Made by a program: the position numbers and the translations under genes. 64,000 bases of DNA. Origin: Squalus acanthias (taxonomy: Eukaryota). The notes below the pieces were generated by a model. That model worked only from the letters and a program-made list of their open reading frames with translations, ran no database searches and was not told where the DNA came from. Below, in pieces: positions 11,109 through 63,180 of the stretch. Within the stretch, counting starts at the first letter, position 1. Each line of letters starts with the position of its first letter. The stretch is taken from positions 45,820,001 to 45,884,000 of the forward strand of contig CM059432.1 of NCBI GenBank assembly GCA_030390025.1, in the 5' to 3' direction.

Positions 11109-13829
11109 CATAGAATCATAGAATCATAGAATGGTTACAGCGCAGAAGGAGGCTATTCGGCCCATCGAGCCTATGCCGGCTCTCTGCAAGAGCACTTCAG
11201 CTAGTCCCACTCCCCCGCCCTTTCCCCATAACCCTGCAATTTTTTTTCCCCTCAGGTACTTAACCAATTCCCTTTTGAAAGCCACAATTGAATCTGCCTC
11301 CACCACCCTTTCAGGCAGTGAATTCCAGATCCTAACCATTCGCTGCATAAAAAAGTTTTTCCTCATATCGCCTTTGGTTCTTCTGCAAATCACCTTAAAT
11401 CTGTATTCTCTGGTTCTCGACCCTTCCGCCAATGGGAACAGTTTCTCTCTATCTACTCTGTCTCGCCCCCTCATGAGTCCATTAAATCTCCTCTCAAAGT
11501 TCTCTGCTCTAAGGAGAACAACCCCAACTCCTCTAGTCTACCATGTAACTAAAGTCCCTCATCCCTGGAACCATTCTTGTAAATCTTTTCTGCACCCTCT
11601 CTAAGGCCTTCACATCCTTCCTAAAGTGTGGTGCCCAGAATTAGACACAATACTACAGTTGAGGCCGAACCATTGTTTTGTAAAGGTTCATCATAACTTC
11701 CTTGCTTTTGTACTCTGTGCCTCTATTTATGAAGCCCAGGATTCCATATGTTTTTTTACCACTTTCTCAACCTGCCCTGCCACCTTCAATGATTTGTGCA
11801 CATATACCCCCAGGTCTCTCTGTTCATGCACCCCCTTTAGAATTGTACCCTTTAGTTTATATTGCCTCTCCTCATTCTTCCTACCAAAATGTATCACTTC
11901 ACACTTTTCTACATTAAGTTTCATCTGCCACATGTCCGCCCATTCCACCAGCCTGTCCATGTCATCTTGAAGTCTATCACTATCCTCCTGACTGTTCACT
12001 ATACTTCCAAGTTTTGTGTCATCTGCAAAGTTTGAAATTGTGCCCTGTACACCCAAGTCTAAGTCATTAATATATATCCAGAAAAGCAGTGATCCTAGTT
12101 CCAACCCCTGGGGAACACCACTGTATACCTTCCTCCAGTGTGAAAAAAAACCTTTCACTACTACTCTCTGTTTCCTGTCACTTAGCCAATTTTGTATCCA
12201 TGCTGCCACTGTCCCTTTTATTCTATGGCCTTCAACTTTGCTGGCAAGCCTATATTACATGGCTCTTTATCAAACACCTTTTGGAAGTCTATGTACACCA
12301 CGTCAACCGCATTGCCCTCATCAACCCTCTCTATTACCTCATCAAGAAACTCGATCAGGTTAGTTAAACATGATTTGCCTTTAACAAATCCGTGTTGGCT
12401 TTCCTTAATTAATCCATACTTGTCCAAGTGACTGTTAATTTTGTCCCGGATTATTGTTTCTAAAAGCTTCCCCACTACTGAGGTTAAACTGACTGGCCTG
12501 TAGTTGCTGAGTTTATCCTTACACCCTTTTTTTAAACAAGGGTGTAACATTTGCAATTCTCCAGTCCTCTTGCACCAGCCCCGTATCCAAGGAGGATTGG
12601 AAGATTATGGCCAGTACCTCCGCAATTTCCACCTTTACTTCCCTCAGCATCCTAGGATGCATCCCATCCGGTCCTGGTGACTTATCTACTTTAATTACAG
12701 CCAGCCTTTCTAGTACCTCTGCCTTATCAATTTTTATCCCATCCAGTGTCTCAACTACCTCCTCTTTCACTATGACTTTGGCAGCATCTTCTTCCTTGGT
12801 AAAGACAGATGCAAAGTACTCATTTAGTATCTCAGCCATGCCCTCTGCCTCTATGTGTAGGTCTCCATTTTGGTCCCTAATCAGTCCCACCCCTCCTCTT
12901 ACTGCCCGTTTACTACTTATATGCCTATAGAAGACTTCTGGATTCCCATTTATGTTAGCTGCCAATCTATTCTCATAATCTCTTTGCTCCTCTTATTTCC
13001 TTTTTCATGTTCCCTCTGAACTTTCTATATTCAGCCTGGTTCTTGCTTGTATTCTCAACCTGACATCTGTCATACGCGCCCTTTTTCAGCTTTATCTTTC
13101 TCTTTCTTTCGTCATCCAGGGAGCTCTGGCTTTGGTTTCCCTACCTTTCCCCCTCATGGAAATGTACCTTGACTGTACCTGAACCATCTCCTCTTTAAAG
13201 GCAGCCCATTGTTTGATTACAGTTTTGCCTGCCAATCTTTGATTCCAATTTACCTGGGCTAGATCCATCTCAACCCACTGAAATTAGCTTTCCTCTAATT
13301 AAGTATTTTTACTCTAGATTGCTCCCTATCCTTTTCCATAGCTAGTCTAAACCTTATGATGATGTGATCACTGTTCCCTAAATGTTCCCCTACTGACACT
13401 TGCTCTACTTGACCCACCTCATTCCCCAGAACCAGATCCAGCAATGTCTCCTTCCTCGTTGGGCCGGAAACATACTGATCAAGAAAGTTCTCCTGAACAC
13501 ACTTCAGAAATTCTTCCCCCTCTCTGCCCTTTACACTATTACTATCCTAGTCTATATTAGGATTGTTGAAGTCCCCCATTATCACTACTCTATAGTTCTT
13601 GCACCTCTCTGTAATTTCCCTGCAAATTTGCTCCTCTATATCCTTCCCACTAGTTGGTGGCCTATAGAATACACCAGTAGTGCAATTGCACCTCTATTGT
13701 TTCTCAACTCTAACCAAATAGATTAGTTCCTTGACTCCTCCAGGAAATCCTCTTTCTCCAGCATTGTAATATTCTCCTTAATCAATACTGACACCCCACC
13801 TGCTTTCTTTCCTTCCCTATCTATCCTGA
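11109..13829 (-). mobile_element. CR1 LINE, 5'-truncated and frameshifted (EN to RT to 3' UTR)
   Basis: Minus ORF pieces with NYRPVSLTS, SQHGFVKGKSC, NFADDTK; tail (CATAGAAT)x3 at 11109-11132. Confidence 0.92.
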
Positions 13830-14280
13830 CCGACCCCACCTCCATCCCGCCTCCGAGCAATTTTCCCCAATGCGTGGTTTCTGATGCCGTCTCCGTCCCA
13901 CCTCCAAGAGGCGGGATAGGCCTTTAAGGCCCTTAACAACCACTTAATTGCCTCTATAATCCCATTTTGAGAGGCCTTTCTGATTTTAACCCTTTTCCCA
14001 CGTGATGCACGCCTCCTCTGAAACATGACGGTGAAACCTGGCGGTAGCAGAATTGGATTGCTGACTATCAGCTGTAGCTCCACCATTAAAAAAGAGATTT
14101 GATCAATCATCATTTGCAGGTGGCAGAACTTTGTTGTCTCAGGTCTGGGGGAACTTTTAACAGGCATGGCCATTGCTGTGGAAGTTTGGAGCCTGACACC
14201 CATCTCCAGTGTGAATTCCTGGGAAACCCCTCTCCCCACCTTGAATGAGCGCTTCCTCAACTGAGGCATATACCAGAAGC

Positions 14281-15530
14281 ATGGCGAACATTTATTTCCT
14301 TTCCTCCTGGACATCAGATGAGGACGAACATCAGCCGCAGCAGCAGCAGAACCCTGAACACCAGCAGCACCAACTGCAGGAGCAACAGCAGCAGCTCCAA
14401 GCTGCTGCTCACCCACCTGAAGCTGCACAGGCCAGAGGGCGCAGCGCATGGAAGCACGTCGGCGCAGGAGATACCCCCAAAACAGGGTCTACAGACAGAG
14501 GATCAGCTACCTCAGCATAACTGAGCAGCAGTGCCAAAGGTGGCTCCGACTTTCACGAGAGATAGTGGGTGACATCTGCGCAATGCTGCAGCAAGAGCTG
14601 GAGCCCAGAGGAGCAGCTGGACACCCCTTACCAGTGCCCGTCAAAGTCACCACCGCACTCAACTTTTTTGCCTCAGGCTCATTCCAGGGATCAGCAGCAG
14701 ACATCAGCAGCATCTCCCAGGCGGCCGCACACACTTGTATCACGCAGGTAACCGATGCCCTCTTTGCCATCGTGCACAATCACATCCATTTCTCCAAGGA
14801 TCAAGCCAGTGTAAATGCGCGGGCGGTTGGGTTTGACAATCTGGCAGGCTTTCCAAGGGTGCAGGGCGTCGTTGACTGCACACATGTGGACCTTAAGGCA
14901 CCCCATCACAATCGAGGTATTTTTGTCAACCGCAAGGGCTTCCACTCCCTCAACGTACAGCTGGTGTGTGACCACAAGAAGGAAATTTTGCATGTTTGCG
15001 CCAAGTACCCTAGCAGTTACCATGACTCCTTCATCCTGCGCCAGTCTAGTGTGCCTCCACTCTTCAGTCTGCCAGACCAACATCACGGATGGCTACTTGG
15101 AGACAAGGGATATCCCCTGAAGACGTGGCTAATGACGCCGTTTAGGAGCCCATCCAACGAAGCTGAGGAGAGCTACAACTCGAGCCACATTTCCACCAGA
15201 TCCATAATCAAGCAAACCATCGGCTTGCTGAAGATGCACTTCAGATGCCTGGATAGATCAGGTGGAGCCCTGCAGTACTCAGCAGCCAGGGTCTCCAGAA
15301 TCGTCGTGGCTTGCTGTTCCCTTCACAACATGGCACAGCGTCGTGGCTTGCAGATTCCTGAGGACCAAGTGGCTCGTCACATATCCTCCTCAGATGAGGA
15401 GGAGGAGGATGAGGAGGAGGAGGGTGAAAACGCTCATCTTGCAGAGGCGCATCAACCAGCGGCAGCAGTACGCGAGAACATTGCTGCCCGGGATGCAAGG
15501 AACGCACTCATCTTGGCCAGATTTGCTTAG
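14281..15530 (+). pseudogene. Harbinger (HARBI1-like, DDE_Tnp_4) transposase, probably inactive
   Basis: [31 protein letters not shown]; the third catalytic position reads IIKQTIG, whereas the copy at ~38770 reads VIEQTIG; probable frameshift near 14445 between ATG 14281 and ORF 14448-15530. Confidence 0.88.
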
Positions 15531-15787
15531 CCTAGCCAATCAAGCACTTTTGCCTCGCAGCTTCTTACCAGAGCATCGACAATGGCCAAGAACCAGCGGA
15601 ATCCTAGCATTCTGACCACCATACTGACAATTGCAAGTCATCCTAAGTCCTCAATGTGGAAGTCCCATTAGCGATATGACACACGCCACAACTGCAACAG
15701 TTGCCATCAGAATTTTTATTTACAGTCACCAACTGATGGCTTTTCAACATTAAACATCACATTTCACCCAAGTGACTACCCTTGTGA

Positions 15788-17796
15788 CTATTTGTGCAGT
15801 ATCCTTCTCTTACACGTGCTCCTACGTGGTGGTTCCCCCTTGGCATCAGCAGATGTGGAGGCCCCTTGCTCACTTTCTTGCTGCTCCTGTCTCAACACCT
15901 TTGGCGGGCATCCTCTGGAGTTGCGAGCCTGTGAGGGCTCAGCAACAGTCTGCTGCTCCTGCGGTTGTGCAGGGGTTGAGATGCTGATCTCAGTTGGGTG
16001 GAGACTCTGGTGGGGCTCTGACCGAGGGCTTTGCAGTGGCATGGTCGTGTGAGCACTTGGAGAGGAGCCCCCACTTCCTTGTTCTCTGCCACCAACATTC
16101 CTCTCATGGGTCAGCCCCACCTCAGAACCAGCAAGTGGCTTGACAGCACCTTGCAGCACTTCAGGGGGGCCATGAGGACCCGGTTCTGTACTGGAAGTCC
16201 TACTCCTGAGGACTTGCATGAAGGTCTGGTTTGTATGCTCAATAGCTGACCATCGCTCCTCAAGAGATGTCATTCTATTCTGAACAATTACCATGTTTTC
16301 CATACCCTGGCGACTAAGCTCCTCCATGGACGTAGCCACCCTCTCTTCTACCGTAGCCATCCTCTCCTCTACGGTAGCCAGCCTCACCATGGAGGTAGCC
16401 ATCCCTTCCACGGAGGTTGCCATCCTTTCCGTGGTGATGCGTTCATGCGCCAAGGCCTCCACAAAGGCTCTGCTCATGTTCGCGATGGACTCCTCCATTC
16501 GCTCCACACTCGCAGCGACCCTGGAGACAAAACCTGCCAGAGACTCCTGCATCTGTTCCTGGAGTTCCAGCACCGCTGATCTTGTGGATGGACCCAGAGG
16601 CAGAGGGTCGACATGCAGCTGAGCCGAGCTGGGAGAGTCCTGCGCCCTCCGCCTAGGACTCTCCACTGCTGTCTCTGTCTCCACCATCTGCTGATGCTCA
16701 CTTGTGAGCTGTAATACACCAGGTGACAACACTACTCTATCTTGCGATGGTCCCACCGAGGTGTGAGTGTCTGCGCTGGTGCTGTGTTGGCTGAATTCTG
16801 CTGATGCTGCGCCCTCAGAGGTTGCAGCTTCCTCTGAGGAGTCTGGAGGCTCAGGCTGGTCCTCCTGGATAGTGGGGACGGATGCTTGCGATGGTCCTGT
16901 GGGGGAGTAAAGGAAAGAGTCAGAGATGTGAGGCCAAGGTTACATGCACAGTGCATATTGCAGATGGTCAGAAGTCCATCTGTTAGAGCTTCAGAATCAT
17001 TATCAGCGACTCATGCAATGTCAATGAGAGAGATGAAAAACTCTTCTGTCACCAGCTTGCTCTGATGCACCCGTCTGTCCGTCCCCCACTTGCGCATCGT
17101 CCTCGACTCCCACGATCTCCAGGGCCGCCTCCTCCCAAGGGGTGAGGTGGGCTACTGAGGGTGGCCCTCCTCCTGTCCTTGCTCTTTCCCTCTTATTGTG
17201 AGCTCTCTTTTCCTGCAATGAGGGAGACAAGTGGAGTTTGAGTGAGAATGAAGGAGTGAGTGTAGAGAATCCATAGCATAGATGCTCAGAAGGAGTCAAA
17301 GATGGAGTGAGGTGACAGGACCAAGGGCCCTCCCTGTGTGTTGTAAGTTGTTTTCATAGCATCACAGTGATAGGGAGTGTGAGGGCTGCATAGTCGAATA
17401 TTTAGGTGAATGTGAACATACAGAGAGAGGGATTGGGTAAGGGTGCAGGGATGTCAGTGTCAAGTGGGATGTGGAAGAAGAGGTTGCTAAAGCTGAGTGC
17501 TGGTGAGGAGAGGCAATGGGAATCAGATTGAGGGTGATGGGGAAAGTCATACTCACTTTTCCATTTTGCAGAAGGTCATGAAACCTCTTCCTGCACTGAA
17601 GCCAGGTTCTGCGGATCAGCGACAACGAGTTGACCTCCTGTGCCACCTGGACCCACACAGCCTTCGTCTGCTGGGGAGGCTTCTTCCTCCCTGAAGAAGG
17701 GAAGAGCACCTCCTTATTAACTCTTGCTCCCTCCACCAAAGCTTGCAGGGCGACGTCATCAAATCTGGGAGCAGACTTAGGTCTCCTGCTGCTCAT
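15788..17796 (-). CDS. Harbinger Myb/SANT-like DNA-binding protein, 3 exons (17796-17557, 17212-17053, 16896-15788), about 502 aa
   Basis: Exon 1 RFDDVALQALVEG..W..VAQEVN..RTWLQCRKRFHDL (Myb/SANT trihelix); GT-AG introns (gtgagt, ttgcag, gtgaca, ccacag) join in frame with ORF 15788-16756; 21-bp heptad repeat suggests a coiled coil; AATAAA on minus at ~15715. Confidence 0.85.
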
Positions 17797-18080
17797 TTTG
17801 CCTCCAGGTCCCTCTCACAGCAAAGGACAAAAGGTTGGCAGTCTGCAGAAGAAGCAAGTCTTCTTGCAGACCTTAAATGCAGCAGCAATGATGACGTCAT
17901 CGGAGGTGACTTTCAGACTGAAAAAACTAATTGGGCCATGGGTTCCCACACGCTGGAACTCAAGTGCCCAATTAGGGGAAAATCGAATAATTCTCCCACC
18001 TCGACTTGGAGTCGGGTGGCTAACATGAAAAGCGGATTACACGACCCCAGCCCGCCCTAATGACAAAATCCAGCCCATAG

Positions 18081-18307
18081 AGTCACACACCATCCTGACT
18101 TGGAAGTATATCGCCGTTCCTTCTTCGTTGCTGGGTCAAAATCCTGGAACTTCCTCCCTAACAACACTGTGGGAGTACCTTCACCACATGGACAGCAGCG
18201 GTTCAAGAAGGCGCCTCACCACCACCTTCTCAAGGGCAACTAGGGATGGTCAATAAATGCTGGCCTTGCCAGCGACGCCAACATCCCATGAACGAATTTT
18301 AAAAAAA
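18081..18307 (+). mobile_element. 3' end of LINE family B (CR1/L2 group)
   Basis: caccaccaccttctcaagggcaactagggatggtcaataaatgctggcc..A-rich tail; the same tail occurs at 43425-43560. Confidence 0.7.
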
Positions 18308-18850
18308 CGACCTCTGGCTGTTCACCCTCCCCCCTCAGAATGTTCTGCAGCCACTCAGTGACATCCTTGGCCCTGGCACCAGGCAGGCAACATACCATCT
18401 TGGACTCACGTCTGCGGCTGCAGAAACGCCTGTCTGTTCCCATAACTATCGAATCTCCTATCACTAATGCTTTCCCAATCTTCCTCCTCCCCCCCTGTAC
18501 AGCTGAGCCACCCGTGGTGCCATGGATTTGGCTCTGGCTGTACTCCCCAGAGGAACCATCGCCCTCATTGAATACTGAATACTGGTTGGAGAGCGAGATG
18601 CACTCAGGGGATTCCTGCACTACCTGCCTGGTCCTCCTTGTCTGTCTGACGGTCACCCATTCCCTCTCTGCCTGCATACTCTTACGCTGCGGGGTGACCA
18701 CCTCCTGAAACGTGCTATCCACGTAGCTGTCTGCCTCACGGATGCACCGCAGTGACGCCAGCTGCTGCTCAAGCTCTGAAATCTGGAGCTTGAGCTCCTC
18801 CTGCTGACGACACTTCCAGCACATGTGGTTCTCCAGGACATGGGGAGCGT
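18308..18850 (-). mobile_element. CR1 ORF1 fragment (zinc finger/coiled coil and SGNH esterase)
   Basis: HMCWKC..ELEQQL..VIGDSIVMGTDRRFC..VCCLPGA. Confidence 0.85.
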
Positions 18851-18852
18851 TC

Positions 18853-20931
18853 TTAATGTCAAGGGCAGTCACTCTCACCTCACCTCTGGAATTCAGCTCC
18901 TTTGTCCATGTTTGGACCCAGGCTGTAATGAGGTCTGGAGCCGAGTGATCCTGGCAGAACCCAAACTGAGCATCGGTGACCAGGTCATTGGTGAGTAAGT
19001 GCCGCTTGATAGCACTGTTTGACGACACCTTCCATCACTTTGCTGATGATTGAGAGTAGGCTGCTGGATAGTAATTGGCCGGGTTGGATTTGTCCTGCTT
19101 TTTGTGAACAGGACATACCTGGGCAGTTTTCCACATTGTCGGATAGATGCCAGTGTTGTAGCTGTACTGGAACAGCTTGGCTAGAGGTGCGGCTAGTTCT
19201 GGACCACAAGTCTTCAGCACAAGAGCCGGGATGTTGTTGGGACCCATAGCCTTTGCTGTATACAGTGCACTCAGCCATTTCTTGATATTTCGTGGAGTGA
19301 ATTGAATTGGCTGTAGACTGGCTTCTGTGATGGTGGGGATTTCAGGAGGAGGCCAAGATGGATCATCCACTCAGCACTTCTGGCTGAAGTTGGTTGCAAA
19401 CGCTTCAGCCTTGTCATTTGCACTCGTGTGCTGGGCTCCGCCATCATTGAGGATGGGGATATTCATGGAGCCTCCTCCTCCCGTTAGTTGTTTCATTGTC
19501 CACTACCATTCACAACGGGATGTGGCAGGACTGCAGAGCTTTGATCTAATCAGTTGGTTGTGGGATCACTTAGCTCTTTTGCTTCCACTGTTTAGCACAT
19601 ATGTAGTCCTATGTTGCAGCTTCCCCAGGTTGGCACCTAATTTTTAGGTACACCTGGTGCTGCTCCTGGCATGCTCTTCTACACTCCTTACTAAACCAGG
19701 GTTAGTCCCCTGGCTTGATGGTAATGGTAGAGTGAGGGATATGCCAGGCCATGAGGTTACAGATTGTGGTGGAATACAATTCTGCTGCTGCTGATGGCCC
19801 ACAGCGCCTCATGGATGCCCAGTTTTGAGCTGCTAGATCTGTTCTGAATCTATCCCATTTAGCACGGTGTTAGTGCCACACAACACGACGGAGGAGTGCC
19901 CTCAGTTTGAAGACAGGACTTCGTCTCCACAAGGACAGTGCAGTGGTCCCTGCTACCAATGCTGTCATGGACAGATGTATCTACGACAGGTATGTTGGTG
20001 AGGACGAGGCCAAATAGGTTTTTCCTTCGTGTTGGTTCTCTCACCACTGGCAGCTATGTCCTTCAGGACTCGGCCAGCTCGGTCAGTAGTGGTGCTACCA
20101 AGCCACTCTTGGTGATGGACATTGAAGTCCCCCACCCAGAGTACATTCTGTGCCCTTGCTACCCTCAGTGCTTCTTCCAAGTGGTGTTCCACATTGGAGG
20201 AGTACTGATTCATCAGCTGAGGGAGGACGGTAGGTGGTAATCAGCAGGAGGTTTTCTTGCCCATGCTTGATCTGAAGCCATGAGACTTCATGGGGTCCGG
20301 AGTCACTGTTGAGGACTTCCAGGACCACTCCCTCCCGACTGTATACCACTGTGCTGCCACCTCTGGTGGGTCTGTCCTGCCGGTGGGACAGGACATACCC
20401 AGGGATGGCGATGGAGGAGTTTGGGACATTGTCTGAAAGGTATGATTCTGTGAGTATGACTATGTCAGGCTGTTGCTTGACTAGCCTGTGGGACAGCTCT
20501 CCCAATTTTGGCACAGGTCCCTAGATGTTAGTGAGGAGGACTTTGCAGGGTTGACTGGGATGGGTGTGCCATTGTCGTTTCCGAAGCCAGTGCCTAGGTC
20601 GATGCCAGGTGGTCCATCCGGCTTTATTCTTTTTCGTAGCAGTTTGGTACAACTGAATGGCTTGCTAGGCCATTTCAGAGGGCAATGGGTCTGGATAAGG
20701 ACGGCAGATTTCCTTCCCTAAAGGACTTTAGTGAACCAAATAGGTTTTTATGACAATCTGGTAGTTTCATGGTCACTTTTACTGATACAAGCTTTCTATT
20801 CCAGATTTATTTAATTAACTGAATTTAAATTCCTCAGCTGCTGTGATGGGATTTGAACTCATGCCTCTGGATCATTAGTCCAGGTCGCTGGATTATTGTC
20901 TAGTAGCATAACCACTATGCTACCATACCCC
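18853..20931 (-). mobile_element. LINE family B, 5' portion: tRNA-like head, short UTR, EN and start of RT; degraded
   Basis: PDIVILTESYL, WVGDFNVH, FGFCQDHS, VTALDIK; head at 20931-20845 with A box TGGTAGCATAGTGG and B box GAGTTCAAATCC. Confidence 0.88.
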
Positions 20932-21055
20932 TGTCTCAAAGCCTTTTACATGACAGAAAGATGGACGCCAAGCAAGAAATGGAGGGATTTAAGTTAGGGA
21001 AGACCATAGGTACTGCCAGAGAAATTGTTTTTTAGGAACCAGTTTAAAGCCAAGC

Positions 21056-21231
21056 AGGTAAATATTTATGTTCATTGCATGGGCGATAATCCAGCAGAGC
21101 AGATTGCCTGCCCATATATAGAACCTGTCCGATTTACTTATCATTAAAATCAATGGGATGAAAGTTGGCCCCGTTCTATAATGGAAAGGCACCAGGTTAT
21201 CGTCCATGCAGTGAAGACGAAAATTTAACCC
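21056..21231. mobile_element. Palindromic MITE, about 175 bp
   Basis: Left arm ggtaaatatttatgttcattgcatgggcgataatcc pairs with right arm ggttatcgtccatgcagtgaagacgaaaatttaacc; inner tatagaac/gttctata. Confidence 0.75.
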
Positions 21232-26818: not shown

Positions 26819-28243
26819 ATGGCTCAACAGGGCAAAGAAAGGGCACCAAGGTTCTCTGATGCAGTACTAGAGGCCTTAGTGCTTGGAGTAGAAAGGTGGA
26901 GACAGGTCCTCTACCTGCAGGGGGCCAGGGTGCCCTCTAGACACAGTCAGAAGGCAGTGGGAGCAGATAGCCGAAGCAGTCACTGCCAGTAGTTTTGCCC
27001 CGAGAACCTGGATTCAGTGCTGAAAGAAGTTCAATGACCTCACATGAGTGGTTAAGGTCAGTGAATGCATCTTCAAAAGCCGTTCTCCTACCAACTGCAC
27101 CACTAACCTCACACACCGACCAACAATCTCTATCAATCACGACTCATACTCATACCTCACATTCATAGCTTCACCTCACCCTCACACACTTACCGCTGCT
27201 GCAAGCCTCACACCCACATCTCACACATTGCACGCACTGCTAGCTATTCAACCATGACAGGCACATCACCCAAACACATTGCACCACACTCACTGACACA
27301 CACATCACCCAATCACATTACACCACACTCACTGACACACACATCACCCAATCACATTGCACCACACTCACTGACACACACATCACCCAATCACATTACA
27401 CCACACTCACTGACACACACATCACCCAATCACATTACACCACACTCACTGACACACACGTCACCCAATCACAGTGAACCACACTCACTGACACACACAT
27501 CACCCAATCACATTACACCACACTCACTGACACACACATCACCCAATCACAGTGAACCACACTCACTGACACACACATCACCCAATCACAGTGAACCACA
27601 CTCACTGACACACACATCACCCAATCACATTGCACCACACTCACTGACACACACATCACCCAATCACATTGCACCACACTCACTGACACACACATCACCC
27701 AATCACATTGCACCACACTCACTGACACACACATCACCCAATCACATTGCACCACACTCACTGACACACACATCACCCAATCACATTGCACCACACTCAC
27801 TGAGGCACATATCACTCAATCATATTACACCACACTCACTGACACACACATCACCCAATCACATTGCACCACACTCACTGACACACACATCACCCAATCA
27901 CATTGCACCACACTCACTGACACACACATCACCCAATCACATTGCACCACACTCACTGAGGCACATATCACTCAATCATATTACACCACACTCACTGACA
28001 CACACATCACCCAATCACATTGCACCACACTCACTGACGCACACATCACCCAATCACATTACACCACACTCACTGACACACTTCCCTTTCTCTTGCAGGG
28101 GAAGGTGGCTCACAACTGCAGGCAGCAGCAGATGGGGAAGCCTGCACATCCTGACCCAGCTGGAGGAAACCGTGTTTGATATTATTGGAGGAGCCGTCAC
28201 TGAGGCCATAGCGATCAGCGAGGCTGAACCATTGAAGATGATG
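26819..28243 (+). pseudogene. Harbinger Myb/SANT gene exons 1-2, degraded
   Basis: MAQQGKERAPRFSDAVLEALV..WEQIAEAV..RTWIQC*KKFNDL with stops and a frameshift; donor gtcagt at 27057, acceptor ttgcag at 28098. Confidence 0.8.
27261..28080 (+). repeat. 39-bp minisatellite, about 21 copies
   Basis: Unit cacatcacccaatcacattgcaccacactcactgacaca. Confidence 0.97.
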
Positions 28244-28288: not shown

Positions 28289-28806
28289 TGATGTAAGCTC
28301 CCAAAGTGCGGACCCAGTGATATACAAGGTCGACGCTACTGGCTTGTTGGAAGAAAGACTGACCAAGTAATTGAAGTCACAACGGTTTATTACAGGCCTG
28401 GGGAGAACCTCTCATGTCGCTTACATGAGTACAACTCCACCGAGCTAATGAAAACACACATATTTATATCCAATCAGGTTTAAAAGTTACACACAATGCT
28501 AGGTCTAAAAAAACACATTACTCGTTTTACAAATATTTCTGTCTTGCCTTTACAGAGATCCAATTAGGTTTAAAAGTTACTTGGTTAGCAAACATTTCTG
28601 TCTCGCCTTATGGGGATCTCGTTATCCGAGGGTGGCTGTAAAAGTTACATACAATGCTATCTGTAAATCTCGTTGAAGGAGGTAGACTCCGAAAGCTTGT
28701 AAGGTGTTGTGTGACTTGAAACAAATCTCGTTAAAGGCCTGGCTTTCTGCAAATGAGTCATGCCCGAATTGCCCTGGTTATATCCAATTTTTAATATCTT
28801 ACTTCA
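28289..28806 (-). repeat. ERV 3' LTR
   Basis: No difference from 34605-35122 found by eye; preceded on minus by the PPT. Confidence 0.97.
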
Positions 28807-28819
28807 ATTCCCCCCTTTT
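28807..28819 (-). promoter_or_regulatory. Polypurine tract
   Basis: AAAAGGGGGGAAT directly before the 3' LTR. Confidence 0.92.
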
Positions 28820-29249
28820 GACCTATTGGACAACTGTTCCAATACAGGTCAACATGTATTCCTATTGCCTGGTGTCTGCCTGAGCGTGCACTCTCTGGCC
28901 TTCTACCAGTCTAGGTTATACATGGGTATGACATAAACCAATTTATAAGCCGGTTTCACCCCACGCGGTATATGTGGACTTATTATTTTCTTGTCTTGGT
29001 TCTATGTTGCCATCCCCGGGGCCCAAGAGCCCTGCATCAATGGTTTGGGCTTCTGGTTCGAGCTTCTGGTTCGAGCTCGTCCTCCATTCCCTCGGTGGGT
29101 GCGTGACGTGTCCTTTCGAGACTGTCATCACTCACCAATCCTGTTTCTGCCACTCCCGTCTTACGGTTGGCCGGCCTGGTTATTAATTACCATGTCCAAT
29201 TCATCCCTTGTAATTTTAGGGCTATAGATCGGGTCTTACACCATCATGG

Positions 29250-29476
29250 CTTTACCTAATCTTTGAGCAGCAAGAATACACAGTATATTGTAATAACAAT
29301 CACGAGGAATATCATTATGCTTTGCACCACTGAGGCGCCCAACGTCCCCGACCATCCTGACCCCCAATCACCAAAATATCATTTCCGGTGTTATATAGGC
29401 CATATATAAGCAGATACTTGATTATCTTCCTTTTTGTCAGCCGTCCCTTCTTCCGTCGTTCTTCTAATTTGTCCTG
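29250..29476 (-). pseudogene. env: env remnant (splice acceptor and transmembrane anchor only)
   Basis: CTAAC..ttgtatttccaCAG acceptor at 29474; YFGDWGSGWSGTLGASVVQSIMIFLVIVITIYCVFLLL is a membrane-proximal and TM-like segment; only ~870 bp lie between pol and the PPT. Confidence 0.6.
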
Positions 29477-29684
29477 TGGAAATACAAGGCTGGTCGTCAC
29501 CAGCAGTTAGTTATTCCATTCTTACTACTTTGCCAGTCTCCCAGATCTATTGAAACATACAGACCACGAAGAATGTTACTATCATAATGCAACAGGATCA
29601 TATTAACGTGAATACAAGGATGTCCTGTCCCTTTGGACCCTATGCAAATAATCCTTGCTTTCCTTGTACAATATGATTTCTGGG

Positions 29685-32523
29685 TTATTCATCAGCTTCT
29701 TTGTATAATTTTAATTGTGTCCAGTGTTTCCATCTTCCCTTTCCAGTGCCGTGCAGGTCTATGCATGCACAAGTGTCGCTGGTCATTAATACCAAATAGG
29801 GTCCTTCCCACCGGGGCCGTAACCCAGGTTTTATTGGAATTATTCTAGACATTACCTGACTTCCCACCCCAGGTATGACTTTCTTTTGTTCCTCGGTATC
29901 CCTCTCCAGATCCTTGATTATCTGCTGGTCTCTAGCCTCCTGTCTCAGCCCGTGCAGTTCCGCACATAATTGCTTTATGAACCTTCTGATTCTGTCCTTT
30001 AAAGGTCCCACATCTTCCCCTCCGGTCACTACTCCTTCGGGAAGCGCCATTGCCCGTCCCGTCATTAATTCAAAAGGGGTCAGTCCGGTGGTGCTATTTG
30101 GTGTGGCCCTTAGTCTCATTAGGATTGTGGGTAACAGTTCCGCCCATCCCTGCCCCGTCTCCACAATGGCCTTTGTGAGAGATCGTTTTAAGGTCCGATT
30201 CATTCGTTCCACCATTCCTGAACTTTCGGGATGGTAAGGTATATGAAATTTCTGCTTTACGCCCAACAGGGCGCAAGCCTCTTTCATTACCTTTCCGGTA
30301 AAGTGTGTTCCATTATCTGAATCTATTTGTAATGGGACTCCCCACCGGGGTATTATTTCTTCTGCCAAGATCCGGGCCACTGTACTGGCGGTACAGTTTC
30401 GGGTGGCAAAAGCTTCCACCCACCTTGTGAATTGGTCAATTATTACCAGACAGTAGGTTTTTCCTTTGCTTTTGGTTAATGGTCCTGTAAAGTCTATTTG
30501 TAGTTTCTCCCAGGGTCCCTTGGGTCTTGGCTGTCTACCCCATTTTACCTTTACTGGTTTTCCGGTGTTACATTGCGCACAAATGTGGCAATCCTTACAA
30601 TACTTCCTTATACTGCTTGATAGTCCGGGCCACCACCAGCATTGGCCTATGTTATTTATCATTCGGCTGGCCCCTGTATGGGCTTGTCCGTGATACAACC
30701 TCATTAGTTCCTGTTGGATACACTCCGGTGCACAGACCCGTCCCTCCTTCCTCCAGACCTTATCTCTGGATAGCATTACTCCCTTCTTTTCCCAAATGTT
30801 CAGCTCAGGTTCTGGTATGCCTTGATGTAACTTAACAATATTATACTCAAGGGGTATTAATGGGACTGGGGCTCCCCCTATCGGTGTTACATTGCCACAG
30901 GGCGCCTCCGTCATAACCTTGGCGGCCAGGTCTGCCGCTCTGTTACCTTGTTCTTGTGGAGTTTTTCCTTTGGTGTGCGCTTTAACCTTTATTACTGCTA
31001 ACTCCGTTGGTCCGCGCGCGGCATTCACCAAGGACTTTACTACGTCCAGGTGTTGGATGGGGGCTCCCCCAGAGGTGATGTACCCCCTCCTACTCCATGC
31101 GGCCATATAATCATGTACTATTCCGAAGGCGTAGCGGCTGTCGGTATATACATTAACCCTTTTTCCCATAGCCAGTTTCAGGGCTTCCGTTAAGGCTGTT
31201 AGTTCTGCGACCTGGGCAGATTTATCCCCTGGGAGAGTTCCGGCTAAAGTTAAAGAGACCGAGTACCTGTCGTACTCCTCTCACGTTTATGGGCCTTGGC
31301 ATTTGGCTGATTGCCTCCTTCCTTTCCTCTGGCATAGCCCTTTTTCCCATACTGACCCTATACCCGAGGTATGTGACTTCCAATTTTCCTACCTGGGCTT
31401 TGGCTGGGTTTGCTTTAAAACCCGCCTCCCGTAGGGTTGAAAAGACCTTTACCAGGGCCCCCTATGTCCCACTTTCGTTTCTGACGCTATTAGGAGGTCA
31501 TCCACGTATTGTAAGAGGGTACTATTTTCACCCTCTAAGTCTAGGTCTTCAAGAGCTCTGGCCATATGGCGGTGAAAAATGGCTGGACTGTTATGGAATC
31601 CTTGTGGGACCCGTGTCCATGTATACTGTTTGCCGCCTATTGTAAAGGCGAACTTTTCCTGTGATTCCTCATGCAGGGGAATGGACCAGAACCCGTTTGC
31701 GATGTCTAACACGGTGAATATTTTGTGTTCTGGTTTTAAACCGTTAAAGATAGTAGCTGGGCTTGCTACAATTGGATATTCCTTTGGGGTCACTTTATTT
31801 AAGGCTGTGTAATCGATTGTAAGTCGATATGACGCATCAGGTTTCTTTACGGGCCATACTGGAGAGTTAGTGCCGGACACTGTTTCTCGCAGAATTCCCT
31901 GTTTCACGAGTTCCAATACTATACTCCGTACGGCTGTCTGGGCCTCCACTTTTAGGGGATATTGTTTATGGGGTCGGTGGGTTGGCCCGGGGACTCTGAC
32001 TGGGTTCATCTTAACCAGTCCGCAGTCCTGCTTGTGTTTGGCCCATAGTTCGGGGAATCGGTGGCAAATTGCCCCCCACCCTCCCTTTTCGTCCCATTTG
32101 GGGTCTATTATTTGGATAGCGCTGATGGCACATGCTGTCTTGGATCCCTTTGAGTTATGTCTCCCTTCCTTGTGGTTATCGGGCCATAGCAACTTATCCT
32201 GTTTGGGGTCTATTAAAACTCCCACTTCCCTTAGTATGTCTATACCCAGGATGGTTCCCTCAGTATTCTCACAGATCCAGAAACATGTAGGTATAATGAT
32301 TTTTCCCAATTCTAGTAATACTGTCTCACTTTTCCATGCTTTAATTTTTACTCCCCCTATCCCAGATATAAAAATATTTTCCTTGGTTCGCGGCAAGGGT
32401 ACGTTTGTTAGAGATATTGCTGCCCCGGTGTCTATGAGCATTCTGCACTGTCGGCCCCCTACCAGTGCCTCAATAAACATTCTAGGGTCTCCCTTTACCG
32501 GGTCTCCGAGGGCCGCTACCTTT
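29685..32523 (-). pseudogene. pol: Pro-Pol (protease, RT, RNase H, integrase) with a frameshift and an internal deletion
   Basis: LIDTGA; WTRVPQGFHNSP; YVDD; frameshift in a G run at 31458-31462; thumb LGLFNFSR joined to RNase H SAQVAEL at ~31245; YTDSRY; integrase HHCC, QIDFTG, SDNGTHF, GMVERMN, WEGPY. Confidence 0.93.
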
Positions 32524-34048
32524 CAGGCGTTGCCTTTTTTTTTATCTGTTTGACCAGTTTTTCCATTTTCCTTGTCAGCTCCACTATGTCTTCCTCGTCG
32601 GAGGTGTCTGAGGAATCATCTCTCTTATACTTCCTACTCTTTCTCCTCTTCCTTTCTTCTCTTTCTCTGTCATCCTCCCAGTCTTGCATTCCCTTCCTGA
32701 TCAGTTTCGCCATGCTTTCCTCGTTATTCTCTGACCTTCCAATACTTGACCCCGGTTTTCCTCCCTGTCTAGGTCCCTGACCTTCCCTTCCTCCTCCTTT
32801 ATTCCAACATTGTTGTTTCCTATGCCCTGGTTTTCCACAATTATGACAGGAAGCCTTTTGCTGAGATGTCTGATTATCCCCTTTGTTCTGTTGCCTCGGG
32901 CAGTCCCTTTTCATGTGGCCCTCCTGTCCGCAACCGAAGCATGCCGCCACACTTAATGCATCCTCATTGTCGCTATCCGTCCTTAGGGCAGCTATTTTAG
33001 GTTTGGCTTGTTCTTGGACCTGAATTAAGTCCTCCCAATTATGGTGGACCACTAGCCCCATTTTTATTGCATTCTGGTGCATTGGACTTAGTCCCTGTTT
33101 AAATGTTTGCAGAAAACAAGCGTTGTTTTTGTTTAAGGGGCCTGGGATCCCACAGTTACCCTCAAAGGCGGACCACTTTCGTTTTCCATAATCGATAGCG
33201 CTTTCTCCCTTTTTTTGTGTGATTCCGCTTATAGCTGCCCAATTTACGGGGGCCTGTCCCATTGCTGCTTCCACAGCGGCCTTGAATTGGTCGAACTCAG
33301 TGTTTAATTGTTGGATTGTCTGTCCTGTATTTGTGGCCCACTGGCCATTTCCGTGGTTGCCCTGCACTAATCTCCACTGTTCCTCGGGACATTTAGCTCG
33401 TACCAATTGATCGATATCTATACTATGTAGGGCATGGTTTATGCGTACTTCGCGCAGTTTGTGCCAGAATGTCTGATTATTCTGGCGGTGTTTTAAGGCT
33501 GGTAATTCATTGAGGAGAATCACCCGATCCTGCAGGCTTAACGGTGTGTAGGTCAACGTTGTGGTGGCCGGCCTGCCCGGTACTGCCGGGACGGCCGGAT
33601 TCCCCCCTGCCGCCGGAATTTCCGGAACCGCGGGGATTGCTGGCCTATATTGCAGTGTCACTGGTGCCATCGGAACAGGCTCCGGGGCTGCCGACTGGTG
33701 TCCTGTATATGGGGGAGGACAGCCAGTCGGCCCCCCCTGGGGCAGCTCCGGGTATAACCTTTCCTGGGAGTTACCCGGTTTTGGGTTGGCTGCAGCTGCT
33801 GGATATGTTTTAAGGGCTCCGCGCTGGAGCATACGTTCCCGATCGTATCGTGCCGCTACGATAATGCACGCTTTCTCCAATTTATTTTTGGTTTGTTTCC
33901 TCCACCAGTCCCTTTGTGTGTCTGGTTTATCGTCCTGGTTCCACCCTGCCTTTCTCATTTTCTCAATTAATTTTTTATTCTTGTCGTAAACATATCGTGT
34001 TACAGACTCTGGGTCTCCCCAGGGTTCCTTATCCTCTTTGCTAGCCAT
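32516..34048 (-). CDS. gag: Gag polyprotein, 510 aa
   Basis: Late-domain motifs LYPEL and PPPY; MHR-like ITQKKGESAIDY; two CCHC knuckles CFGCGQEGHMKRDC and CHNCGKPGHRKQQC. Confidence 0.92.
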   Translation of the reverse strand: MASKEDKEPWGDPESVTRYVYDKNKKLIEKMRKAGWNQDDKPDTQRDWWRKQTKNKLEKACIIVAARYDRERMLQRGALKTYPAAAANPKPGNSQERLYPELPQGGPTGCPPPYTGHQSAAPEPVPMAPVTLQYRPAIPAVPEIPAAGGNPAVPAVPGRPATTTLTYTPLSLQDRVILLNELPALKHRQNNQTFWHKLREVRINHALHSIDIDQLVRAKCPEEQWRLVQGNHGNGQWATNTGQTIQQLNTEFDQFKAAVEAAMGQAPVNWAAISGITQKKGESAIDYGKRKWSAFEGNCGIPGPLNKNNACFLQTFKQGLSPMHQNAIKMGLVVHHNWEDLIQVQEQAKPKIAALRTDSDNEDALSVAACFGCGQEGHMKRDCPRQQNKGDNQTSQQKASCHNCGKPGHRKQQCWNKGGGREGQGPRQGGKPGSSIGRSENNEESMAKLIRKGMQDWEDDREREERKRRKSRKYKRDDSSDTSDEEDIVELTRKMEKLVKQIKKKATPER

Positions 34049-34584
34049 AGTTTATTTATTTATTTATTTATTTCTTTTTCGGCCAGAAGGACTTGTCCTT
34101 CACCCAGTGTTAAAACAACCTGTTTAACTACTTCTTAAGAGCCGCACCTCGTGGGCCTACCGGGTTTCTAAACCCTTGTTTGTTTATTTTAAAAACTCCC
34201 CGTTTTAACTACTACCTAAGTTTACTTTTCGGCCAGAAGGACTCGCCCTCCACCGTGTTAAAACTCCCCGTTTTAACTCCTACTTAAGTTTACTTTTCGG
34301 CCAGAAGGACTCGTCCTCCACCGTGTTAAAACTCCCCGTTTTAACTACTACTTAGGAGCCGCACCTCGTGGGCCTATCAGGTTTCTAAACCCTTGTTTTC
34401 CGGTACCGCAGTCCGGCAGTGTTAACCGCCTTCAATTAAAGGTGTCTTTCTTTTTATAGTTCTTTTGTACGTCAATCTTACTTAACGTCTCGCCAGCGAT
34501 TAACCTCTAATTTTACAGGTGGTAATTTAAACGTACTCACCCGTCTTAGGTTATCGCTGTCCGAGAGTTTTGTTCAGATCGCGC

Positions 34585-34602
34585 ATCCCACCCTCGTCGC
34601 CA
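34585..34602 (-). promoter_or_regulatory. Primer-binding site for tRNA-Ser(GCU)
   Basis: TGGCGACGAGGGTGGGAT, 2 nt after the 5' LTR, complementary to the vertebrate tRNA-Ser(GCU) 3' end ATCCCACCCTCGTCGCCA. Confidence 0.9.
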
Positions 34603-34604
34603 AT

Positions 34605-35122
34605 TGATGTAAGCTCCCAAAGTGCGGACCCAGTGATATACAAGGTCGACGCTACTGGCTTGTTGGAAGAAAGACTGACCAAGTAATTGAAGTCACAACG
34701 GTTTATTACAGGCCTGGGGAGAACCTCTCATGTCGCTTACATGAGTACAACTCCACCGAGCTAATGAAAACACACATATTTATATCCAATCAGGTTTAAA
34801 AGTTACACACAATGCTAGGTCTAAAAAAACACATTACTCGTTTTACAAATATTTCTGTCTTGCCTTTACAGAGATCCAATTAGGTTTAAAAGTTACTTGG
34901 TTAGCAAACATTTCTGTCTCGCCTTATGGGGATCTCGTTATCCGAGGGTGGCTGTAAAAGTTACATACAATGCTATCTGTAAATCTCGTTGAAGGAGGTA
35001 GACTCCGAAAGCTTGTAAGGTGTTGTGTGACTTGAAACAAATCTCGTTAAAGGCCTGGCTTTCTGCAAATGAGTCATGCCCGAATTGCCCTGGTTATATC
35101 CAATTTTTAATATCTTACTTCA
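34605..35122 (-). repeat. ERV 5' LTR
   Basis: TGAAGTAAG...CTTACATCA; TATAAAT at ~34778-34784; AATAAA at ~34702-34707; U3 repeats of tccaat(c/t)aggtttaaaagttac. Confidence 0.97.
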
Positions 35123-35195
35123 CTGGAAATCCGAAATAACAACAGAAAACGTTGGAAAAACTCAGCAGGCCAGGCAGCATCCGTGGAGAGAGAAA

Positions 35196-35236
35196 CAGAG
35201 TTAACGTTTCAGGTCGAAGACCTTTCGTCAGAACTG
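35196..35236 (-). ncRNA. Minimal type I hammerhead ribozyme motif, intact core
   Basis: cAGTT CTGACGA a AGGTC ttc GACCT GAAAC GTT AACT: conserved core, stem II, palindromic AACGTT stem III, stem I AGTT/AACT. Confidence 0.75.
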
Positions 35237-35500
35237 AAAAAGGGCAGGAAATGAAATAGATTTAAAGCAAGGATAAAGCTGGGAAAAGGGGGAGGGAATG
35301 AAAGAACAAAAGGAGAGATTAAGAGACATTGAGAGACATTAAGAGATGATCAAGGCAAGAGGAGGTGTTAATGTGACAGGTGGAGGCTAAAAGAAGTGTG
35401 AAATGCACTGGCAGAATGAAGGACAGCTGCCAGCTTCTGGGAGGGGAAAAAAAAGGTAGGCCAAACAAAAGGGTGGATGAAAAAATAAAATATAAATTGT

Positions 35501-36813
35501 TCCACCAGGATGGCCTGAGGGCGCTCCGCTTCTTCCTTGAACAGAGGCCCAACCAGTCCCCATCCACCACCACCCTCCTCCGCCTGGCTGAACTTGTTCT
35601 CACATTGAACAAGCTCTCATTTGACTCCACCCATTTCCTCCAAATCAAAGGTGTTGCTATGGGTACCCACATGGGTCTTAGCTATGCCTGCCTTATCGTG
35701 GGATATGTGGAACACTCTTTGTTCCAGTCCTACTCGGGTCCCCTCCCTCACCTCTTTTTCCAGTCCATTGATGACTGTATCGGTGCCGTCTCCTGCTCTC
35801 GCCCTGAACTAGAACATTTCCACCCTTCCCTCACCTTCACATGGTCCATCTCCGACTCTTCCCTTCCCTTCCTCGACTTCTCCGTCTCCATCTCTGGGGA
35901 TAGGTTATTGACTAACATTCACTACAAGCCCACTGACTCTCACAGCTACCTGGACTACACTTCCTCCCACCCTGCCTCCTGTAAGGACTCTATTCCATTC
36001 TCCCAGTTTCTCCGTCTCCGCCGCATCTGCTCTGACGATGCCACCTTCCATACCAGTGCTTCCGACATGTCTTCCTTTTTCCTCAACCGAGGATTCCCCT
36101 CTACTGTGGTCGACACGGCCCTCGACCATGTCCGTTCTATCTCCCGCACTTCTGCCCTCACCCCTGCCCCTCCCTCCCGGAACCAAGATAGAGTTCCCCT
36201 TGTCCTCACCTTTCACCCCACCAGCCTCCACATTCAACGGATCATCCTCCGCCATTTCCGCCACCTCCAGCGTGATCCCACCACCAAACGCATCTTCCCC
36301 TCACCTCCCCTTTCAGCATTCCGAAGGGACCGCTCCCTCCGCGACACCCTAGTCCACTCCTCTACCACCCCCAGCACCCCTTCCCCTTCGCCCTGCACCT
36401 TCCCGTGCAAGCGCAGGAGATGCAACACATGCCCTTATACCTCCCCTCTTCCCATTGTCCAGGGCCCCAAACACCCCTTCCAGGTGAAACAGCGATTTAC
36501 TTGTACTTCCTGCAATTTAGTATACTGTATTCGCTGCTCACGATGTGGTCTCCTCTACATTGGGGAGACCAAACGCAGATTGGGTGACCGCTTTGCGGAA
36601 CACCTCCGTTCAGTCCGTAAGGGGGACCCCGAGCTCCAGGTGGCCTGTCACTTTAATTCTCCGCTCCACTCCCACTCTGACCTCACCGTCCTCGGCCTAT
36701 TACATTGTTCCACGGAAGCTCAGCGTAAGCTCGAGGAACAGCACCTCATCTTTCGTTTAGGCACCCTACAGCCCTCTGGACTCAATATCGAGTTTAACAA
36801 TTTTAGATCATAA
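35501..36813 (+). pseudogene. Penelope-like RT (C-terminal part) and GIY-YIG endonuclease
   Basis: QIKGVAMGT, SIDD, HYKPTD, Cys linker FPCKRRRCNTC, VYCIRCSRCGLLYIGETKRRL..RFAEH, GLN. Confidence 0.92.
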
Positions 36814-36999
36814 CCTCAGCCCCTATCACATTTATATTTTATTTTTTCATCCACCCTTTTGTTTGGCCCCCCCTTTTTTTTCCCTCCCAGAAGCTGGCAG
36901 CTGTCCTTCATTCTGCCAGTGCATTTCACACTGCTTTTAGCCTCCACCTGTCACATTAACACCTCCTCTTGCCTTGATCATCTCTTAATGTCTCTCAAT

Positions 37000-43310: not shown

Positions 43311-43784
43311 GCTCACAGTTTGAGAAATGCCATGTCCTTTTAAGCAATTTGCTGAGGCTAAGATTGAGTATGCGGTAAGTAGACAAACATGACCTCCCAC
43401 CTTATCATTCCAAGATTCTGTGAATTGGTGGGATCACCTTCACCACATGCACACAGTGGTAAAAGAAGGCGGCTCACCACCACCTTCTCAAGGGCAATTA
43501 GGGAAGGGCAATAAATGCCGGCCTTTCCAGCGATGCCCACATCCTGAGAATTTTTTAAAATTTGATACTCCATTCTACTATGCCATTATACAGCTGATAT
43601 TCTATATTATTATGGGTTTCGGCACATGACTAGTATAATTACTGTTTAAAGGTCCAGATTGCCAACGTATGAAGTCAACTTAAACCACTGAAGTGCGTTG
43701 CAGCTACAAACAAAACATTTTTGCAAAAAGCAAGAACTGAACAGGAACTTGCAATTTTGTGGATTTGCTTGTATTTATATGTTA

Positions 43785-60914: not shown

Positions 60915-63180
60915 AAAATAAATCTGGAATAAAAAGCTAGCATCAGTAATGGTGACCATGAAACTACCAGATTGTCGTAAAAACCCATCTGGTTCACTAA
61001 TGTCCTTTAGGGAAGGAACTGTGCCATCCAAGTCTGGCCTATATGTGACTCCAGACCCACAGCAATGTGATTGACTCTTAACTGCCCTCTGAAAGAGCAT
61101 AGCAAGCCAAGCAGTTGTACCAAATAACTACGGAAAACAATAATAAGTATAAAACCGGACAGACTACCCAGCATCGAACTAGGCACCGGCTTTGGACATG
61201 ACGAAGGCACACCCTGCCCAGCCAACCCTGCAAAGTCCTCCTCACTAACATCTGACTAAAATTGGGAGAGCTGTCGCACAGACTAGTCAAGCAACATCCT
61301 GACATAGTCATACTCACAGAATCATACATTTCAGCCAAAGGTCCCACCGGCAGGACAGACCCACCAGAGGTGACGGTTCAGTGGCATACAGTTGGGAGGG
61401 CGCGGCCCTGGGAGCCCTCAACATTGACTCTGGACTCCATGAAGTCTCATGGCTTCAGGTCAAGCATGGGCAAGGAAACCTCCTGCTGATTGCTACCTAC
61501 CACCTTATCTCAGCTGATGAATCAGTACTCCTCCATGTTGAACACCACTTGGAAGAAGCACTGAGAGTAGCAAGGTCACAGAATGTACTCTGGGTGGGGG
61601 ACTTCAATGTCCATCACCAAGAGTGGCTCGGTAGCACCACTACTGACCGAGCTGTCTGAGTCCTGAAGGACATAATTGCCAGACTGGGCCTGCAGCAGGT
61701 GGTGAGAGAACCAACATGAGGGAAAAACCTACTTGACCTTGTCCTCACCAATCTACCTGTCACAGATGCATCTGTCCATAACAGTATTGGTAGCAGGGAC
61801 CACCGCACAGTCCTTGTGGAGACAAAGACCCGTCTTCACACTGAGGACACCCTCCATTGTTTTGTGTGACACTACCACCGTGCTAAATGGGATAGATTCA
61901 GAACAGACCTAGCAGCTCAAAACTGGGCATCCATGAGGTGCTGTGGCCATCAGCAGCAGCAGAATTGTATTCCACCACAATCTGTAACCTCATGGCCCGG
62001 CATATCCCTCACTCTACCATTACTGCCAAGCCAGGGGACCAACCCTGGTTCAATAAGGAGTGTAGAAGAGCATGCCAGGAGCAGCACCAGGTGTACCTAT
62101 AAGTGAGGTGTCAACCTGGGGATGCTGCAACAAAGTACTACATGCATGCTAAAAAGCGGAAACAGCATGCTATAGACAGAGCTAAGCGAGTCGACAACCA
62201 ACGGCTCAGATCAAAGTTCTGCAATCCTGCCACATCCAGTCATGAATGGTGGTGGACCATTAAACAACTAACAGAAGGAGGAAGCTCCATGAACATCCCC
62301 ATCCTCAATGATGGTGGAGCCCAGCACGTGAGTGCAAAAGACAAGGCTGAAGCGTTTGCAACCATCTTCAGCCAGAAATGCCGAGTGGATGTTCCATCTT
62401 GGCCTCCTCCTGAGGTCCCCACCATCACAGAAGCCAGTCTTCATCCAATTTGATTCACTCCACGTGATATCACGAAACGGCTGAGCACACTGGATAGAGC
62501 AAAGGCTGTGAGCCCTGACAACATCCCGGCTGTCATGCTGAAAAATTGTGCTCCAGAACTAGCCGCGCCTCTAGCCAAGCTGTTCCAGTACAGCTACAAC
62601 ACTTGCATCTACCCGACAATGTGGAAAACTGCCCAGGTATGTCCTGTCCACAAAAAGCAGGACAAATCCAATCTGGCCAATTACCGCCCCATCAGTCTAC
62701 TTTCAATCATCAGCAAAGTGATGGAAGGTGTCATCGACAGTGCTATCAAGTGGCACTTACTCACCAATAACCTGCTCACCGATGCTCAGTTTGGGTTCCG
62801 CCAGGACCACTCAGCTCCAAAACTCATTACAGCTTTGGTCCAAACATGGACAAAAGATATGAATTCCAGAAGTGAAGTGAGAGTGACTGCCCTTGACATC
62901 AAGGCAGCATTTGACCGAGTGTGGCATCAAGGAGCCCTAGTAAAATTGAAGTCAATGGAAATCAGGGCAAAAACTCTCCACTGGAGTCATACCTAGCACA
63001 AAGGAAGTGGTTGTTGGAGGCCAATCATCACAGTCCCATGACATCGCTGCAGGAGTTCCTCAGGTCAGTGTCCTAGGCCCAACCATCTTCAGCTGCTTCA
63101 TTAATGACCTTCCCTCCATCAAAAGGTCAGAAGTGGGGATGTTCGCTGATAATTGCACAGTGTTCAGTTCCATTCGCAAT
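60915..63180 (+). mobile_element. LINE family B copy (SINE-like 5' region, EN, RT up to FADN)
   Basis: Collinear with the reverse complement of 18853-20812; NYRPISLLS, ALDIKAAFDRVWH, GVPQ. Confidence 0.9.

Follow-up and report, generated by a model that had tools for sequence, protein, structure and literature searches.

The window, a 64 kb stretch of repeat-rich animal DNA from the spiny dogfish Squalus acanthias, holds two incomplete copies of one retroelement and two separate pieces of its 3' end (Table 1). Copy A lies on the minus strand; its first base is 20930, its opening letters are GGGTATGG, and it carries an A box (TAGCATAGTGG, 20922-20912) and a B box (GTTCAAATC, 20858-20850). The endonuclease (EN) motif KVLLTNI starts at 20544, 386 nt from the first base. 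Both the boxes at the start of a minus-strand element and an endonuclease about 400 bp from that start had been claimed in the first-pass annotation, and both could be located and measured here. Copy A is interrupted at 18852 by a fragment of a CR1 ORF1 (18851-18308), and no other place in the 64 kb window yielded the 3' half that it lacks.

Table 1. Features of the tRNA-headed element in the window.
Feature	Position	Strand	Basis or content
tRNA-derived head of copy A	20850..20930	-	Box positions, Rfam and elasmobranch consensus starts
Decayed first hairpin of copy A head	20903-20888	-	
Second hairpin of copy A head	20883-20867	-	
Conserved middle block of the 5' UTR, copy A	20653..20849	-	Alignment of copies; near-invariant by eye in 7 consensus rows
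Open N-terminal arm, basic (rich in Arg, Lys and His), sharing the endonuclease frame	20545..20652	-	Runs from the TTG at 20652 and lacks an ATG in frame
Copy A's decayed single ORF, spanning the APE endonuclease and half (the first) of the reverse transcriptase	18852..20544	-	Stops and frameshifts
Family 3' end	18081..18307	+	ORF C-terminus, AATAAA at 18252, TTTT at 18297-18300, A run
Short family 3' fragment	43428..43560	+	AATAAA at 43510, T6 run before A's
Copy B	60916..63180	+	5'-truncated within the UTR, then junction, endonuclease and reverse transcriptase

A second copy with the same junction and without the tRNA part had been claimed at 60915-61330, and we confirmed it as copy B. The two copies are 89.2% identical over 1911 aligned columns. 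The junction between the middle block and the EN is identical in both, copy B has no tRNA part, and the flanks are different. Within the middle block, about 33 nt near 20684-20696 are kept in copy B and missing from copy A; the end of the block forms a small hairpin with a 7-nt loop, directly before a conserved TTG. Copy B is preceded by one CR1 fragment and cut by another in reverse orientation. The piece at 18081-18307 matches the C-terminus of a homologous protein (P0010; E 2e-6) and was assigned to the family; it is oriented opposite to copy A and may or may not be that copy's own tail. Each window copy thus misses one or both ends, and only copy A retains the tRNA part.

Its domains, its relatives and the published consensus sequences identify the element as a decayed Zenon, a CR1-group LINE of elasmobranchs. 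Pfam models for Exo_endo_phos (weak) and RVT_1 (E 7e-16) matched the copies, and tblastn alignments were collinear with full-length homologs. RTE/RTEX, the first family guess, was dropped given the list of homologs and the Zenon consensus rows. The nearest named reverse transcriptase (RT) homologs among the matches listed are from manta ray and sevengill shark (69-78% identity). The protein's relatives, taken from the best 120 of 668 matches, have one ORF of about 950 aa that encodes APE and RT; their contigs frequently measure 3-4 kb, and their sources include lancelet, brittle star and butterfly. In a quick tree containing no named Zenon reference, butterfly, lancelet and brittle-star proteins shared a group of 115 rows with copy B (SH-aLRT 91, not starred), and the two CR1 elements of the window fell outside it. 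At the DNA level, the match to published elasmobranch Zenon consensus sequences was made by eye over the first 400 nt, where copy A was closest to SquAca_Zenon-1.

The published elements (CarCar, HypSab, RhiTyp, ScyCan and SquAca_Zenon; PMC13343379) have, by eye, the same 5' sequence as the window element, together with a single ORF for an APE endonuclease and RT, no ORF1 and an A tail, and we found no structural difference between them and it. According to the accessible parts of that article (Stuart et al. 2026), Zenon elements of elasmobranchs, hagfish and coelacanth invariably lack ORF1 and carry a poly(A) tail, those of elasmobranchs are absent from all repeat repositories, and copies with an intact ORF number 3 of 612 in the ray and 1 of 1419 in the whale shark. 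The earlier description of the element as ORF1-less therefore holds (386 nt separate the start from the EN, and the depth of public contigs is single-copy upstream, at 20951), yet it was overstated as a peculiarity, since the lack of ORF1 is the norm in Zenon. The poly(A) tail is likewise present in public contigs, where loose ends in an A run behind 18297 occurred in 1586, 1578 and 1241 contigs of three DNA runs.

A whale shark preprint (10.1101/443036) merely names CR1-Zenon. The words tRNA, Pol III, polymerase and promoter do not occur in the accessible text of PMC13343379 or of its own preprint, and the article makes no remark on a tRNA head, promoter, polymerase, start codon or short derivatives. 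In the open literature, from which subscription journals are largely missing, we found no paper on a tRNA-headed shark LINE or on an autonomous LINE made by Pol III. What is new here is an unremarked, unusual anatomy of a known published family. DNA pattern scans for further shark copies gave none in viral contigs and none in prokaryote genomes; none of 28 candidates from a protein scan of viral contigs was confirmed, and no shark locus was among the best 80 of 509 loci from a metagenome scan.

Other repeats surround these copies. Both Zenon copies and the inverted tail adjoin fragments of one esterase-type CR1 family (18308-18851, 60214-60915); with two to three such cases, a preference cannot be separated from abundance. 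The Zenon tail at 18081 adjoins the end of a transposon at about 13800-18080, presumably Harbinger-like, with a 369-aa transposase-like frame and a Myb-like frame, and related ends lie at 57361-57956. An LTR retroelement or endogenous retrovirus-like insertion at 28289-34904 has terminal repeats that are 100% identical over the 300 nt compared, and its minus strand carries long open frames resembling gag, protease-RT and RNase H-integrase (labelled from motifs); this insertion looks recent. At 35134-37958 there is a 478-aa frame with an RT and a GIY-YIG-like end, together with inverted arms that are 97% complementary, which we take to be a Penelope-like element. Some 21 tandem repeats of a 39-nt unit (27138-28217) lie within another repeat. 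Just upstream of copy A, an imperfect, MITE-like palindrome (21059-21227) folds with z -3.7, and none of 200 shuffles folded as well.

The tRNA-like character of the head was scored in several ways. A loose A+B pattern had its sole match in the 64 kb window at the copy A head; because 0.83 matches are expected per shuffle (mean of 200 shuffles), this match is by itself not above chance. A stricter pattern, fitted post hoc to tRNA-like boxes with the site already known, gave 0 matches in 500 shuffles. The Rfam tRNA model scored 20.7 bits (E 0.17) on the head, so below the gathering score of 29, with a match that spans model positions 7-64 only and lacks the acceptor stem, and ARAGORN called no tRNA there.

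We compared the element with the 10 Zenon consensus rows in Supplementary Table 2 of PMC13343379, over the first 400 nt of each. The tRNA-like head is the start of all seven elasmobranch rows, which are 2.9-3.3 kb long and cover five species of sharks and ray (white shark, whale shark, catshark, three rows for spiny dogfish and one for a stingray). Over the same length, none of the three hagfish and coelacanth rows starts with it. The middle block is shared by the seven rows and is, by eye, near-invariant and more conserved than the head. Within the visible table text, exact B-box motifs matched six of the seven elasmobranch rows and nothing else, and exact motif matches overall covered six to seven of the seven; the B box of the ray consensus is damaged. 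Among 80 metagenome LINE loci, none resembled the head. One of them had a strict A+B match, a tRNA-like pair (L007:6405-6459) that sits about 570 nt downstream of the LINE ORF. A relaxed ARAGORN hit upstream of the Zenon-like locus L054 was rejected, as neither Rfam nor the box scan supported it.

These comparisons indicate that the junction between head and EN is a family feature and that the head is its fixed 5' end, as the first-pass annotation had claimed for the junction: two copies 11% apart and the consensus rows of five species agree on it. The published full-length elasmobranch consensus sequences begin at the tRNA head, with no ORF1 and no longer UTR upstream, and a junction found in five species is not limited to a few copies of one duplication. 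An abundant free SINE could instead have been joined to LINE bodies by local insertion, recombination or consensus artefact. The tRNA part is present in one window copy only, neither window copy is complete enough to reveal target-site duplications, and among the contigs listed none spans the LINE from head to tail, all of which would fit such a fusion. It leaves the agreement between the copies and the consensus rows unaccounted for, and it is also opposed by the depth of public contigs.

For depth, contigs of three DNA runs (from three organisms) and of one run guessed to be RNA were mapped to 18000-21200 at 80% likeness. Summed contig depth is not a copy number, and we used it only for the end of the repeat at the head and for the lack of a large head excess; in run X1 it reached 0.9-1.1 million across the head (20675-20888) and 1.1-1.5 million across the EN, with 0.35 million at the variable linker bin, about 6 million at the tail and 14.8 at 20951. 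The profiles of the other two DNA runs had the same shape. In all three, EN and head both had the depth of a repeat, position 20951 had that of a single copy, and the head was not in excess of the EN. We consider a chance fusion highly improbable, and it is already largely refuted. In the run guessed to be RNA, summed depth was 20-23 thousand at the head against 3-7 thousand at the EN; contig depth does not measure expression, and these values were not used. A contig of a second organism spans 20816-21200 with 19 differences, and insertion A is therefore older than the split between the two.

Short forms that combine head and tail are present in the same contigs. Five head-tail joints, among 15 joints listed (with 3547 further), connect 20629, 20642 or 20648 to 18165, 18208, 18215 or 18233 on opposite strands. 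They were seen in 1-8 contigs per run in each of the three DNA runs, and none was listed for the run guessed to be RNA. The joint table gives no reading direction, for which head-then-tail is the natural reading. The breakpoint at 20648 is the border between UTR and ORF, and that at 18233 is near the stop codon. That one head is joined at several breakpoints suggests repeated loss of internal LINE sequence, which would leave products of about 380-450 nt, and short SINE-like forms therefore probably arise by internal deletion. This supports the earlier suggestion that the element is the parent of such SINEs, and the short forms do consist of the 5' head and a tail of the type at 18081-18307. 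Copies A and B run into the EN-RT ORF and are not short and non-coding, as SINE2 elements are; the short head+tail forms may qualify as SINE2.

The position of the boxes raises the question of which polymerase makes the RNA. We lean slightly towards RNA polymerase III (Pol III), which would make full-length Zenon RNA from the A and B boxes of the head. Counted in favor were the intact pair of boxes at the 5' end, the consensus starts, a scarcity of TTTT and the lack of an in-frame AUG; counted against were the AATAAA of the tail, which fits Pol II equally, the damaged B box of the ray and the tails without T run in most contigs.

On the coding strand, TTTT occurs 0 times in 2080 nt of copy A and once in 2265 nt of copy B. 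Six CR1 pieces of the window have 2.5-5.5 per kb, and TTTT is present in all 80 metagenome LINE ORFs at 1.54 per kb at least, with the qualification that only 9 of these 80 outgroup loci best match Zenon-like references. The dinucleotide TT is at 0.66 (A) and 0.76 (B) of expectation (P below 0.001); corrected for CpG decay, the ratios are 0.78 and 0.91, and the lowest outgroup value is 0.84. Dinucleotide shuffles account for the TTTT deficit (P 0.38 and 0.45). Scaled to T content, the deficit has P 0.026 in A and 0.087 in B, two copies that are not independent, and CCCC is as depleted as TTTT. Phe content is 0-3.2% vs 3.1-3.7% in aligned homologs, a comparison from few residues of decayed copies that was not used. 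The T-run signal for Pol III is thus modest.

Copies A and B lack an in-frame ATG, both ahead of the EN domain and inside it. The EN frame opens after a TAG and keeps the TTG in frame in both copies, 108 nt (A) and 117 nt (B) before KVLL. A Met ahead of the first EN motif is present in each of the four non-shark Zenon-like loci that extend to this motif. By eye, three of the seven consensus rows keep the TTG in frame, the three dogfish (Squalus) rows have a TAA after it, and in the whale shark row it falls in another frame. Six of the seven rows contain an ATG; it lies outside the EN frame in the ray row and is missing from both window copies. The 5' UTR had no match to a ribozyme or IRES in Rfam, and its folds did not surpass those of shuffles; among five short pieces a single one, 20640-20690, gave a marginal result (9 of 200).

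The folds of the head itself allow another reading, in which the RNA comes from host read-through and its 5' end is set by the tRNA-like head, acting as a signal for processing or stabilisation, much as ribozymes set it in R2, RTE and Ingi LINEs. Self-cleaving 5' ends have been reported in six LINE clades (PMC5786205). Both head hairpins are kept in the consensus rows while stem letters vary between species: in the second, the letters differ in the white shark, whale shark and catshark rows with pairing retained (by eye), and selection may be acting on its structure. In the shark consensus, the loop of the first hairpin is of anticodon type and reads AGT (Thr). Cleavage by RNase P would need an acceptor stem, which the head lacks, and there is the missing ribozyme match as well, so that we regard this reading as improbable. 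By eye, the second hairpin also resembles a duplicated anticodon arm in dogfish-type copies.

The tail is read differently under the two polymerases. In both window tails the AATAAA is followed by a T run that abuts the A's, a layout described for polyadenylated SINE RNAs made by Pol III (PMC12101331). Most contigs pass from 18297 directly into A's, with no T run. If Pol II makes the RNA, the AATAAA would be an ordinary polyadenylation signal, the promoter would lie in the middle block, and the head would have been captured once, as a passenger or a TFIIIC helper. LINEs are generally regarded as Pol II transcripts (PMC10886601, PMC5786205), and the greater conservation of the middle block, the AATAAA in both tails and the weak T-run statistics are in keeping with this. 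Pol III processivity is also said to restrict such elements to short lengths (PMC10886601). A Pol II origin does not explain why seven of seven rows start at the first base of the tRNA with an A box kept in sharks and ray, or why AUG and TTTT are absent, and we think it rather unlikely, though a serious alternative to the Pol III transcription that we favor.

The anatomy has partial counterparts in known systems. In the accessible part of PMC10886601, non-LTR elements are assigned to Pol II and SINEs to Pol III; the TRIMp3 elements described there (Cassandra, Helenus and Ajax) are, like Zenon, non-SINE retroelements with a Pol III promoter derived from a small RNA, but they are of LTR type, non-coding and at most about 1.3 kb long. 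RTE-1_DAn and related elements (Drosophila RTE) are likewise autonomous LINEs with a tRNA-like sequence, in another clade (PMC5786205). The short Zenon forms resemble bipartite SINEs (Bov-tA/BovB, SINE2-1_ACar, CoeSINE4), in which a tRNA head is joined to the 5' and 3' parts of a LINE (PMC5786205, PMC4494074). In those, however, a headless parent LINE is first deleted internally and then receives the head, whereas the coding parent in Zenon has the head; the accessible parts of the two articles name bipartite derivatives only for RTE, Ingi, Vingi and R2. CR1-Zenon partners bivalve SINEs via the tail only (PMC11481361), and other shark SINEs have L2 tails (PMC5499810), as does the Deu-SINE SacSINE1, in which a Deu domain goes with an L2-derived tail, whereas the tail in the window encodes the C-terminus of the Zenon ORF. 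The head and middle block did not match an old SINE-like copy of the window (about 43770-44120), presumably of the Deu-SINE/SacSINE1 type.

The middle block had been likened to the Meta domain of MetaSINEs, and this did not stand. In BivaMeta-SINE1 and BivaMD-SINE1 the Meta domain directly follows the tRNA part (PMC4824008), and we saw no likeness to either by eye. One Meta motif occurred in the window at chance level and none in 20500-20931; conversely, none of six middle-block motifs was found in the PDF supplement of PMC4824008, as far as it was accessible, and none of five in bivalve SINE supplements. MetaSINEs share with Zenon a tRNA head, theirs being nearest to tRNA-Thr and that of the shark consensus having the Thr-type loop, and differ in the 66-bp Meta domain after it, which is lacking in the coding, 3.3 kb Zenon (PMC4824008).

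We propose the following sequence of events. A Zenon LINE that was autonomous, about 3.3 kb long and equipped with a single ORF would have gained a tRNA-derived head, probably in the ancestor of sharks and rays, and would have retained it as the fixed 5' end seen in the consensus rows. The A and B boxes would then act as an internal promoter from which Pol III makes the full-length RNA, and a coding strand that avoids T runs would prevent an early Pol III stop. This uncapped RNA might be translated without an AUG, perhaps helped by the conserved middle block. The AATAAA near the 3' end would supply the A tail, and the EN-RT protein would copy the RNA by target-primed reverse transcription, which is established for LINEs. 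Because the promoter would sit in the head, internal deletions that keep head and tail, as at the several joints in the contigs, could yield ready-made SINE-like elements. More tentatively, Zenon may be the first autonomous protein-coding Pol III retrotransposon, having swapped its promoter in stem elasmobranchs, purged terminators, dropped its AUG for a cap-independent start and made SINEs by deletion alone.

The family is abundant and its consensus sequences are public. A working split holds that LINEs are coding and made by Pol II and that SINEs are non-coding and made by Pol III. If the Pol III reading is true, this split would fail for a LINE family whose tRNA promoter has persisted in both sharks and rays, and a natural Pol III RNA of 3.3 kb could be translated. 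A single deletion would then be a direct route from LINE to SINE, which would bear on the origin of SINE bodies.
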